A DNA stretch of 32,000 nucleotides from an uncultured archaeon (GTDB lineage Archaea > Asgardarchaeota > Jordiarchaeia > Jordiarchaeales > Jordiarchaeaceae): contig CAZECW010000193.1 of NCBI GenBank assembly GCA_964510585.1, forward strand, positions 30,001 to 62,000. Direction: 5' to 3'. Both the position numbers and the translations under genes were made by a program. Below are positions 23,065-30,165 of this stretch, piece by piece. The stretch's first letter is position 1; every line of letters begins with the position of its first letter. The notes beneath the pieces are model-generated. The model was not told where the DNA came from and made no database searches. It worked only from the letters and a program-made list of their open reading frames with translations.

Positions 23065-23355
23065 ACATCTCCTGCCAAAACGTCTAAAACCTATCCTACA
23101 AATACGGTCGCCCTTTCTCTATTATGCCAAACTAGATTAGGATTTCTGTTTCCAAGATAAAAACTGGCAAAAGCTACCTTCCCTTAAAAAAAGGCGAGAG
23201 GAAGGAAGCAATAGGAGCAATGAAGCCAAACCAAAGCTAAGCGCTCCCACGTTTTTCCAAAATTGTTTTTTGCTTTTCAATATTTTTTTAAGTTTTGATG
23301 ACACTTGCTTAACTAGCGTAGTTTAATTACGCTAAAATAATGGAGGTGTAAAGGC

Positions 23356-24411
23356 CTGGAAGACTATAGGTTAACGAAGGCAGTAACTCTTTATGGATGA
23401 TCCTGTAAATTGCCTCAAACCAAGCTTCTGAATCTCTTGGAAAAAGTGGGCGTTAAAAAGGATCCCTCAGGCAGAGTTGTAGGAGGAATCGGAGAAGACG
23501 CAGCGGTCATAAAAATTCAAAAAGATTTGGTGCTCATAGAAACTGTGGACTTCATAACCCCCAACGTTGACGACCCCTACATTCAAGGCAAAATAGCTGC
23601 TGTAAACGTTACCAATGATGTGTACAATGTAAATCATAATGATTTACATGCATAAGCCATAGGTGGAACCGACGTGGTGAGCTTTCTTGCAATACTGGGA
23701 ATTCCTGAGAACATGCCCCTCAAGATGGCTGAGGAGATGTTACGGGGGATAAACGACTTGATAAGTGAGTTGGGCACCACAACCATTACTGGGGGACACA
23801 CCATAATAAACCCTTGGCCCCTAGTGGGAGGCGTAGCCTCAGGAATAGCCCACCCAGACCAGATAGTAACTCACAAAGATGCGCAGCCCGGCGACATACT
23901 CATACTCACCAAACCCTTAGGCACACAACCCGCAATGGCTGTCTACAGAGGATTACGAGACCCCGCCGTGGCAGAACAAATCCTGAAGTTGGTTTCTCGA
24001 AAGGAAGCAGAAGAAATGGTTGAAAAAGGAATTAAATTGATGACCACCTCAAATAAACCCGTGGCTGAGGTCATGAGGGTGGTTAAACCCCACGCTTCCA
24101 CCGATGTCACAGGCTTCGGCTTACTCGGCCACACCCAGGGAATAGCGGAAAGCAGCAAAGTAGACATCACCATTCATACCCTACCCATCATTAAAGGCAC
24201 CTTACAAATTTCGGATCTCTTTGGCTACGGCCTGCAATCTGGAGAATCAGCAGAGACCGCTGGCGGCATGATTCTCTTTGTCCCAAGTGATTTAAAGGAA
24301 AATTTGGAACACGAACTTGACAGGAGATCTGTAACCCATTACGAGATAGGAAAAACTAGTAAAGGGTCAGGAAAAGTAGACTTCAGCAAGGCAGAAATAC
24401 TTGAAGTTTAA
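23356..24411 (+). CDS. selD: Selenide, water dikinase (selenoprotein): CTG start, UGA read as Sec at codon 15, 30-nt insertion at 23626-23655; 341 aa if spliced
   Basis: CTG GAA GAC TAT AGG TTA ACG...GGA TGA TCC TGT AAA gives (M)EDYRLTKAVTLYG-U-SCK. Then GEDAAV, TVDF, NVTNDVY|AIGG, GGHT, LTKPLGT, TDVTGFGLLGH and ETAGG all follow in one frame. Confidence 0.92.
23398..23400 (+). other. In-frame UGA recoded as selenocysteine
   Basis: It occupies the catalytic Cys/Sec position of the SelD G-(C/U)-x-C-K motif, and a SECIS lies 3' of the gene. Confidence 0.93.
23626..23655 (+). other. Candidate archaeal bulge-helix-bulge-type pre-mRNA intron (30 nt) in selD
   Basis: Inverted repeat ATGTAAATCAT/ATGATTTACAT, 4-bp helix GUGU(23620-23623):GCAU(23650-23653), and bulges AC^A and AA^G. 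Excision restores NDVY-AIGG and removes the TAA. Confidence 0.7.
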
Positions 24412-24412
24412 A

Positions 24413-24470
24413 GCGGCAGTAATGACCTGCAGACAAAACCCTTCATGGAGGTCTGCGGGGAACATTCCGC
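24413..24470 (+). promoter_or_regulatory. Eukaryote-like SECIS element in the selD 3' UTR
   Basis: Helix I is GCGG/CCGC. The core is AUGA(24422-24425)...GA(24460-24461). Helix II is CCUGCAGAC/GUCUGCGGG. There is an apical AAAA and a CC..GG mini-stem (type II-like). Confidence 0.9.
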
Positions 24471-24573
24471 CTAGCAAGGTTGGTGCCGCCCCTACAAACT
24501 AATTAGTTTCCACACTGGTAGAAGCTTGAAGGAGCATTCCCCCTTCGTGGGTGTTGTTTTCAAATTTTTTATT

Positions 24574-24672
24574 CCTTTTCCGGGTCCAAACAGGCATTTT
24601 TCTGTGCTTCAAAAGCCGATTTGCGGCTTAAAACAACATTTTTCCTGCTTCCCGAAAATTTTCCACAATAGG
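24574..24672 (+). repeat. Dispersed intergenic repeat, copy 2
   Basis: ccttttccgggtccaaacaggcattttt..aaaagccgatttgcgg.ttaaaac..aattttccacaata matches 21157-21240 in direct orientation. Confidence 0.75.
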
Positions 24673-24905
24673 TAGCTAGGCTGGCTGTGTCACACTTTTT
24701 TTGGGTTTTAACTTTAAAATTTTTGTTATAATAATATGCGGTTTCTGAATTTTAACGATTTTTCCAGTCACTAATCTCTTTCTGGGACCATTTTCGGCGG
24801 TCTTGGGCACGTAAGAGTTAAATATAACATTAAATCCAAACTAAAACGTTTTAAAAACAACAAATTACGTGAGTGACGGATAATTCGATTTGAGAGGCGA
24901 CTTGA

Positions 24906-28344: not shown

Positions 28345-30165
28345 ATGATAAACAACATTTTAGCAAGCTACGAACTACTTGCATCAATAGCAGTACTACT
28401 AATAATGGGACCCATAGTTTACCTTATAGGAAAAAAGTCCGGCAAAGCTGCAAGATGGCTAGCCTTCCTAACCGCAGCAACATCAGCAGCACTCCTAGCA
28501 CACATAGGAATAATTTTACTCGACCCCTACGCAGTATCCCTAACAGTAACAATTGACTCCACGACATGGACTTACAGCTTCATATACTCAAGCCAAATAG
28601 TGCCAACCGCCGCATTACAGTTCAATGTGCAACTCTACCCCTTCACCACTTCCCTCAACCAAATCCCATGGATATGGAACAACTTCGACCGAGCAATAGC
28701 AGTCCCCATGTATCAGGCATACAGTGTAATACCCGACTACCCATACCTTGTACTGCTCTCCATGGATCCCCTAAGCAACATTCCAAGACTTCCTTCGCTT
28801 ACCGCTGGCCTACTCGCCGACGGTTTAAGCTATCCCATAGCCATACTCATCTCGGGATTGGGCGCCGCTGTAATGTTCTTCTCCGCCTACTACATGAAGG
28901 ACGTAGAGAGTCCAGGAAGCTTCTTTGGAAACATGCTATTCTTCATCGGTGGCATGATTGGAGTAGTACTGGCAACCACAGTAATAGAGTTCTTCATCTT
29001 CTGGGAAGTAATGCTAATACCATCGTACATACTGGTGAACCAGTTCGGACTGACCGAGAATAAGAGCAGAACCGCCCTCAAATACTTCCTGTGGACCACA
29101 TTCGGCAGCGTAATAATGTTTGTAGGAATATTCATGATGGGCGTAACCCTAAACACCTTCGACTTCCAACAAATGACCCTCAACCTAGCAGCAGCACAAA
29201 CCGCATACGCAACCTACCTTGGCACACTCATACCCTTCGGAGCAACATTCAACCAGTGGCTAAGCCTATTCCTAACCGGACTGGTACTCGTCATACCCGC
29301 AATACTAATCTTCATCGGCTTCGCAGTCAAAATGGCAATATTCCCACTCCACACCTGGCTACCAGACACATATATGGAAGCACCAATGCCCGTCGTCCTA
29401 CTATTAAGTGCGGCCATGACCAAAACCGCAGCCTACGGTATCGCCAGATTCCTAGTAATCTACATGGGCCCATCACTACAAATGCTCCAAGTAAGCCTAG
29501 CAATAATCGGACTAGTAACCGCAGCTTACGGCGGAATCATGGCATTAACACAAAACAACCTAAAGAAAATGCTAGCCTACTCATCTATGAGTCAAATGGG
29601 ATATATTTTGTTCGGCTTTGCTATGGTTTCGGTGCTGGGTGTGAACGGTTCGCTTCTACATATTTTGAACCATGGTATTTGCATGGGCGTATGGTTTATG
29701 GTTGCAGCAATCATATCGAAGGCTACTGGCACCTTGGACTTCGATAAACTTGGAGGTTTGTCTGAGAGGATGCCCGCAGTGGCCGCAATTGCTGTTATCG
29801 CTGGTTTATCAGTAGCTGGTGTTCCGCCCCTACTGGGCTTCTCCAGTGAGTGGATGATCTTTGCGGGTGGCGTGATGGCCACTCAGTACCTGCTTACAGC
29901 ATTGTTAATAGTGGCTACCGCAATCACACTGGGCTACTATCTATGGGCGGTTCGTCGGATTTTCTTCGGACCACTAAAAGAGGGACTTGAGAAAGTGACT
30001 ACTCCTCGAAGCCTACTGGCTCCAATTGTAGTTCTAGCAGCCTTCATAATCGTGTTGGGCATAGCGCCAGCAATTGCCACACAGTACTTTACGCCGATAA
30101 TCAACCAGATACTTGCGCCATGGTATGGATACCAACAAATACTGTATTTATTAGGAGGCCTGTAA
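28345..30165 (+). CDS. NuoM-like antiporter subunit
   Basis: FFIFWEVMLIP, KYFLWT..GS, FAVKMAIFPLHTWLPD...EAP, LAYSSMSQMGY, NHG and G.PPL.GF.SE. Confidence 0.92.
   Translation: MINNILASYELLASIAVLLIMGPIVYLIGKKSGKAARWLAFLTAATSAALLAHIGIILLDPYAVSLTVTIDSTTWTYSFIYSSQIVPTAALQFNVQLYPFTTSLNQIPWIWNNFDRAIAVPMYQAYSVIPDYPYLVLLSMDPLSNIPRLPSLTAGLLADGLSYPIAILISGLGAAVMFFSAYYMKDVESPGSFFGNMLFFIGGMIGVVLATTVIEFFIFWEVMLIPSYILVNQFGLTENKSRTALKYFLWTTFGSVIMFVGIFMMGVTLNTFDFQQMTLNLAAAQTAYATYLGTLIPFGATFNQWLSLFLTGLVLVIPAILIFIGFAVKMAIFPLHTWLPDTYMEAPMPVVLLLSAAMTKTAAYGIARFLVIYMGPSLQMLQVSLAIIGLVTAAYGGIMALTQNNLKKMLAYSSMSQMGYILFGFAMVSVLGVNGSLLHILNHGICMGVWFMVAAIISKATGTLDFDKLGGLSERMPAVAAIAVIAGLSVAGVPPLLGFSSEWMIFAGGVMATQYLLTALLIVATAITLGYYLWAVRRIFFGPLKEGLEKVTTPRSLLAPIVVLAAFIIVLGIAPAIATQYFTPIINQILAPWYGYQQILYLLGGL

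Follow-up and report, generated by a model that had tools for sequence, protein, structure and literature searches.

A predicted bulge-helix-bulge intron in the selenophosphate synthetase gene of Jordarchaeia/Freyarchaeia

How can an archaeon make selenophosphate synthetase from a selD gene whose conserved NDVY-AIGG motif is interrupted by a 30-nucleotide (nt) insert that ends in an in-frame stop codon? The gene lies in the 32,000-nt stretch of DNA analysed here (the window; positions 30,001 to 62,000 of contig CAZECW010000193.1, our C193), which comes from a metagenome-assembled genome (MAG) of 217 contigs and 3.78 Mb that is 96% complete. Candidatus Jordarchaeia / Freyarchaeota MAGs are the nearest named records to this genome, in agreement with a previous reading made from the letters of the window (hereafter the sequence-only reading), which had taken it for a probable Asgard genome and had proposed that the insert is spliced from the transcript by EndA, the transfer RNA (tRNA) splicing endonuclease. 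Our analysis leads to the same answer: positions 23626-23655 very probably form a pre-messenger RNA (pre-mRNA) intron of the bulge-helix-bulge (BHB) type, in the relaxed HBh' form, and its removal from the RNA is predicted.

The insert, its fold and the restored gene

To place the insert among relatives, we used the class Jordarchaeia/Freyarchaeia, represented by 11 species genomes in two families. The selD site is assembled in 10 of these; the eleventh, whose contig is truncated, is excluded from the insert count. The parts of the insert and the two exons that it separates are listed below in window coordinates.

23356-23625, plus strand: selD exon 1, with the putative CTG taken as its start; positions 4-90 of model NF010705 and 1-89 of TIGR00476
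23626-23655, plus strand: candidate BHB intron of 30 nt in the HBh' form, with an in-frame TAA at its 3' end; location shared by 10 species
23656-24411, plus strand: selD exon 2 including the TAA stop; positions 91-341 of NF010705 and 90-283 of TIGR00476
23620-23623, plus strand: 5' strand of the central helix (H), GUGU, in exon 1; paired in all 10 species, G-U having changed to G-C once
23650-23653, plus strand: 3' strand of helix H, GCAU, in the intron; 4 base pairs (bp) with GUGU
23624-23626, plus strand: 5' bulge ACA with the predicted cut at 23625/23626; A-C/U-A in 10 of 10 species
23654-23656, plus strand: 3' bulge AAG with the predicted cut at 23655/23656; AAG invariant in 10 species
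23627-23649, plus strand: intron hairpin (h'); 10-bp stem 23627-23636/23640-23649 and UAA loop 23637-23639

The insert is bordered by the tyrosine codon TAC (23623-23625), with which ...VNVTNDVY ends, and by the alanine codon GCC (23656-23658), with which AIGGTDVV... begins. The arms of its palindrome span 23627-23637 and 23639-23649, and this 23-nt palindrome is present as a single copy both in the window (0 in shuffled sequences) and in the 3.78-Mb genome. When the region 23596-23685 is folded, the minimum free energy structure and the centroid both contain helix H, a 3-nt bulge and the 10-bp hairpin. The modelled structure shows a 4-bp GUGU/GCAU helix with the 10-bp hairpin stacked on one side and the splice sites in the ACA and AAG bulges. 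As in an EndA substrate, the central helix is exactly 4 bp long and pairs bases of the 5' exon with bases at the 3' end of the intron between the two splice sites; the 5' bulge, ACA or AUA, is clean and closed by H and h'.

In the archaeal cbf5 introns, cleavage separates the second residue of the bulge from the third (PMC2738675). Applied to selD, this rule removes 23626-23655 and joins position 90 to 91 of NF010705, and 89 to 90 of TIGR00476, with no residue lost or added. The exons score 96.6 (exon 1) and 251.1 bits (exon 2) against NF010705 on contiguous positions, the model cut-off of 291 being set for the whole protein, and together they match this equivalog over its full length; the N-terminal Sec/Cys-x-x-K motif (Sec, selenocysteine) is present as G-U-S-C-K. 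The sequence-only reading had the coordinates of the TAC and GCC borders, the 30-nt insert, the in-frame TAA, the hairpin arms, the GUGU/GCAU helix and the ACA and AAG bulges all correct. Its BHB geometry holds, its cut rule, which places each cut behind the bulge's second nucleotide, is identical to that published for cbf5, and its expectation that such cuts restore NDVY-AIGG and a 341-residue protein is upheld by the contiguous SelD profile positions.

Under the proposed mechanism, EndA would cleave the selD transcript at 23625/23626 and 23655/23656, and the ligase RtcB would join the exons into ...GAUGUGUAC/GCCAUAGGU (the slash marking the junction), restoring NDVY-AIGG. The product would be a 341-residue, Sec-containing selenophosphate synthetase with the predicted junction peptide ...VNVTNDVYAIGGTDVV..., and the 30-nt intron would be freed, probably as a circle.

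Both enzymes are encoded in the genome. EndA is represented by two full-length paralogues of 192 and 198 residues (contigs C157 and C126), each with the N-terminal and the catalytic Pfam domain; by eye, one retains the Y...H...K set and the other is without the His. As far as their sequences go, the pair fits an (alpha-beta)2 architecture, which, according to PMC5829648, is one of the types, together with epsilon2, able to cut non-canonical motifs, and which has been inferred for most Asgard genomes (2026 preprint, bioRxiv 10.64898/2026.10.13.758758). RtcB scores 578 bits. Introns interrupt 92-95% of the tRNA genes in Freyarchaeia and Atabeyarchaeia genomes (Valentin-Alvarado et al., PMC11291895). 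ARAGORN returned six tRNA genes from the whole 96%-complete genome and none within the window, a low yield that fits tRNA genes heavily interrupted at non-canonical positions.

Several observations weigh against a BHB intron at this site. The outer exon-exon helix is paired in 60% of the alignment cells, in a register that changes from one family to the other; because this helix is not conserved, the 3' AAG sits in an internal loop and not in a clean 3-nt bulge, and the motif is therefore of the relaxed HBh' form, not the strict hBHBh' form. The sequence-only reading had named the relaxed HBh'/BHL class, which stands, but the outer helix as it drew it does not. The genus of the window also has an alternative fifth pair, U23619-A23654, which would shift the bulge by one position and lead to a non-productive cut, in competition with the productive fold. 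The single-sequence fold is no more than moderately better than shuffled sequences (z-score -1.76) and, to our knowledge, the EndA enzymes shown to cleave relaxed motifs are crenarchaeal and include none from Asgard.

The remaining features of the gene concern its start, its Sec codon and its 3' end.

23341-24411, plus strand: selD reading frame, open from 23341 onwards, with an upstream stop at 23338-23340
23398-23400, plus strand: Sec codon, an in-frame TGA in the motif G-U-S-C-K; identical TGA in all relatives
24413-24489, plus strand: hairpin in the 3' untranslated region, immediately behind the selD stop; core AUGA...GA, apex AAAA

The spliced frame has 341 codons provided that the CTG at 23356 is the start. 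Between the stop at 23338-23340 and the Sec codon there is no in-frame ATG, GTG or TTG, and the CTG, which lies 7 nt 3' of the Shine-Dalgarno-like site GGAGGTG, may serve as a non-canonical start. All six genomes of the window's genus have a CTG that follows a perfect GGAGGTG at a distance of 6-8 nt; in the sister family TTA stands at this position, with an ATG four codons further on. The hairpin that follows the gene folds at -31.3 kcal/mol with a modest z-score of -1.8, and an Rfam search of 23300-24700 matched no family, this hairpin included. A eukaryote-like Sec insertion sequence (SECIS) has been described for Asgard selD (PMC11227280), and the candidate hairpin at 24413-24489 resembles it.

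Conservation of the insert across the class

The insert occurs at the identical codon boundary in all 10 species genomes that cover the site, and thus in both families. Eight species have an insert of 30 nt, one has 31 nt and another 34 nt, so that it cannot be translated through. Judged from the reading frames, it is impossible for unspliced mRNA to yield full-length SelD in any species that carries the insert, because the insert holds an in-frame stop or a frameshift. The borders are conserved as GUGUAY/A ... GCAYAA/GC (slashes marking the predicted cuts), the first intron base being an invariant A, and the hairpin sequences are wholly different between the families (AUGUAAAUC/GAUUUACAU versus GCGUAGCC/GGCUACGC or ACACAGCC/GGCUGUGU).

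In the alignment of the 10 species, helix H is paired in 100% of the cells and hairpin h' in 95.6%, with compensatory double changes at seven of nine h' pairs. The covariation score is 0.357, as against 0.193 for shuffled alignments (0 of 500 reach the observed value) and 0.147 or less when the partners are slid. Given the 10 orthologues and no structure, RNAalifold returned helix H of 4 bp, a bulge of 3 nt and h' of 8 bp. The sequence-only reading had proposed an alignment of relatives to see whether the insert, its stem and its central helix are kept, and in this class they are. It had also named a recent private mutation as an alternative, which fails: the insert is class-wide, and it must be old because synonymous sites are saturated between the families, yet the structure has been kept by compensatory changes.

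At the DNA level, for which that reading had wanted confirmation, the insert is real. Assembled contigs from three hot-spring runs bridge it unchanged and without gaps, and no contig lacks it. A strain about 6% divergent (run X5) keeps it as well; its differences are confined to the hairpin loop and to exon positions 23616 and 23658.

Purifying selection acts on both exons: the ratio of nonsynonymous to synonymous substitution rates (dN/dS) is 0.03-0.12 for exon 1 and 0.05-0.12 for exon 2, with dS saturated between the two families. There is no second selD in the genome, the other match being a distant AIR-synthase-fold protein (E 6e-6), and the related genomes likewise hold one strong match each and no second. 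SepSecS is encoded (E 2e-130), so the Sec pathway needs selD, and Sec-containing genes are present. These results bear out the earlier view that selD is not a dead gene, and the separate intact copy that would have spoken against it does not exist in this genome.

In other Asgard classes and in Bathyarchaeia the insert is absent from selD, which reads D(L/V/I)(Y/F)-(A/T) without interruption, and a metagenome scan for further intron variants brought up solely intron-less, Bathyarchaeia-like selD genes. The absence from these groups places the gain of the putative intron on the stem of the class Jordarchaeia/Freyarchaeia and, on this distribution, it has been retained since.

Other explanations for the insert

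The gene could be split, a product of about 100 N-terminal residues assembling with a separately initiated one of about 245 C-terminal residues, and the hairpin serving as an intercistronic regulatory or stability element. The list of open reading frames (ORFs) does hold a 245-residue ORF that begins with a GTG at 23674, and purifying selection on both halves fits such an arrangement as well as it fits splicing. Exon 2, however, has no conserved start codon or ribosome-binding site, and its first possible start varies or is missing from species to species. The break would lie inside the conserved NDVY-AIGG motif, the GTG-initiated product would lose AIGGTD, and in the species with 31- and 34-nt inserts exon 1 would continue in the wrong frame. 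The invariant BHB core would be left without a reason, and we consider a split selD highly unlikely.

Alternatively, the insert could stay in the mRNA and be skipped by the ribosome, with the hairpin as the signal. Translational bypassing of the phage T4 gene 60 type requires matching take-off and landing codons. A stable hairpin directly after the last codon of exon 1 would suit bypassing, lengths of 31 and 34 nt besides 30 are compatible with hopping, and covariation of the hairpin would also be expected of a bypass signal. In selD, however, the take-off codon would be UAC or UAU (Tyr), whereas exon 2 is preceded by the triplet UAA (CAA in a single species), which would leave the tyrosine tRNA no landing site. 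Nor would bypassing explain why the invariant 4-bp helix and a pair of 3-nt bulges sit precisely at the boundaries, or the inserts of the same geometry and unrelated sequence in other genes (see below), and we give it very little credence.

That selD is a pseudogene, or the insert an assembly or template-switch artefact, as an in-frame stop in a conserved motif and the local AATG periodicity might suggest, can practically be dismissed given its presence in 10 independently assembled species genomes and in ungapped contigs of four separate runs, the low dN/dS of both exons, the compensatory changes that maintain the hairpin, and the lack of another selD in a genome with SepSecS and Sec-containing genes.

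Mini-introns in other genes and their meaning

A BHB intron in selD would not stand alone in this genome. A strict BHB scan with an ORF-joining filter, run over the whole genome, recovered the selD intron, ranked second by stem length, and several others, among them those of cbf5, gatE and pcm; the inserts in other protein genes are as follows.

C18:27688-27718, minus strand: cbf5 insert, 31 nt, strict BHB; DKCLD and the start of TruB_N before it, TruB_N 17-149 after it
C18:16244-16273, minus strand: gatE insert, 30 nt, strict BHB; GatB_N 2-40 before it, 47-276 after it
C187:67020-67051, plus strand: pcm insert, 32 nt, strict BHB; PCMT 3-59 before it, 61-208 after it
C56:9205-9233, plus strand: ppsA insert, supported by the restored motif
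C187, about 84663-84699, minus strand: kae1 insert, supported by the restored motif
C58:3762-3791, plus strand: rtcB insert, 30 nt with a TGA; helix CCCG/CGGG, bulges ACA and AAG

These inserts share the BHB geometry of selD and are unrelated to it in sequence. The one in cbf5 lies between GHAGTL and DPKVTG, with Pfam coordinates contiguous across it; the one in rtcB splits LPD-AHQGYG, and its bulges are identical to those of selD. Since rtcB is interrupted, the ligase needed for splicing would itself depend on splicing. The gatE, pcm, ppsA and kae1 inserts (29-32 nt) mostly start with A and end with AA.

A further strict-BHB candidate of 28 nt, at C180:1146-1173 (plus strand; helix ACGG/CCGT, both bulges AAA), would link a pair of long ORFs at ...DPAYG-KYHFDGHR, with a Pfam match in neither half, and a candidate on C99 is likewise without Pfam support. 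Two scan hits, aroE/shikimate kinase on C132 and ferredoxin/AOR on C24, proved to be adjacent genes and not introns. A loose BHB scan of the whole genome gave 168,050 candidates, of which 822 join ORFs compared with 854 at random positions, no excess. The 13,516 strong candidates show a small excess over frame-shift controls (67 versus about 40-55), and a genome scan for the 'A...AA' consensus gave no enrichment (434 versus 373-466). As these looser scans show no clear enrichment, we report individually verified cases and not a genome-wide count. The search for further in-frame hairpins that the sequence-only reading had suggested was thus fruitful for single verified genes, whereas the loose scans did not rise above their controls. 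That reading had also tied selenophosphate synthesis to RNA splicing; a link of this kind is not specific to selenium metabolism, at least six other genes, rtcB and cbf5 included, having mini-introns. Because several such mini-introns occur in protein genes of the genome, the selD intron is best understood as one instance of tRNA-type introns spreading into mRNAs across the lineage, and not as a regulator specific to selD.

Watanabe in 2002 and Yoshinari in 2006 reportedly dealt with the crenarchaeal cbf5 pre-mRNA intron. Among archaeal protein genes, cbf5 of Crenarchaeota is the only one for which an endonuclease-dependent intron has experimental confirmation (PMC2738675), as the sequence-only reading had supposed when it called cbf5 the sole well-established case. 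Like that intron, found in Desulfurococcales and Sulfolobales (Yokobori 2009, the same source), the predicted selD intron is short, lies in a protein-coding gene, has a relaxed BHB motif whose predicted cuts follow the second residue of each bulge, belongs to a host with a hetero-oligomeric EndA and is inherited throughout a lineage from a common ancestor. Unlike cbf5, selD encodes a selenoprotein, which is the only source of selenophosphate; the host belongs to the Asgard phylum, splicing is here a prediction, and selD is one of several interrupted protein genes in its genome, among them cbf5 with its 31-nt insert.

The tRNA introns of Atabeyarchaeia and Freyarchaeia (PMC11291895; bioRxiv 10.64898/2026.10.13.758758) share with the selD intron the lineage, the presumed two-subunit EndA with RtcB, and a BHB motif of which half is made of exon sequence. 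The selD intron differs from them in sitting in an mRNA: the motif's exon half must encode protein as well, and removal must restore the frame. Introns in protein genes are mentioned in neither of these two sources. Our literature search found no paper that links a BHB intron to selenophosphate synthetase or selD, and the selD intron is unmentioned in the Asgard selenoproteome papers and in the genome papers on Jordarchaeia/Freyarchaeia.

In eukaryotes, HAC1/XBP1 mRNAs undergo non-conventional splicing, in which the protein endonuclease IRE1 cuts at stem-loops and a tRNA ligase, RtcB in metazoa, joins the exons. As in our model for selD, a short mRNA intron is excised by a protein endonuclease and the exons are joined by a tRNA ligase; HAC1/XBP1 differs in that the enzyme is IRE1 and not EndA/TSEN, the sites are twin stem-loops and not a BHB, and the system is regulated by stress. 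A role for RtcB in splicing of this type is noted in PMC8718801.

Our results support selD as a second, unrelated archaeal protein gene with a predicted EndA-type intron, a very rare kind. Beyond selD, inserts of the same type are present in rtcB, cbf5 and several further genes, and it therefore appears that mRNA splicing regularly takes part in gene expression in this lineage. We lean slightly towards the broader view that the tRNA-splicing machinery of Jordarchaeia/Freyarchaeia, EndA with RtcB, routinely splices mRNAs and that many housekeeping genes, among them selD, cbf5, gatE, pcm, ppsA, kae1 and rtcB, depend on it.

If this is true, these archaea would be the first prokaryotic lineage with pervasive and obligatory pre-mRNA splicing catalysed by protein enzymes. 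Feedback would be built in: rtcB would need RtcB, and selD would need not only splicing but also its own product, for the Sec residue that it encodes. Selenoprotein synthesis in these organisms should depend wholly on EndA and RtcB. Gene callers will annotate such a selD as split or as a pseudogene, which may lead to wrong conclusions on selenium use. Asgard is the archaeal phylum closest to eukaryotes, and splicing of this kind would bear on the coupling of transcription and translation and on the origin of split genes before eukaryotes.
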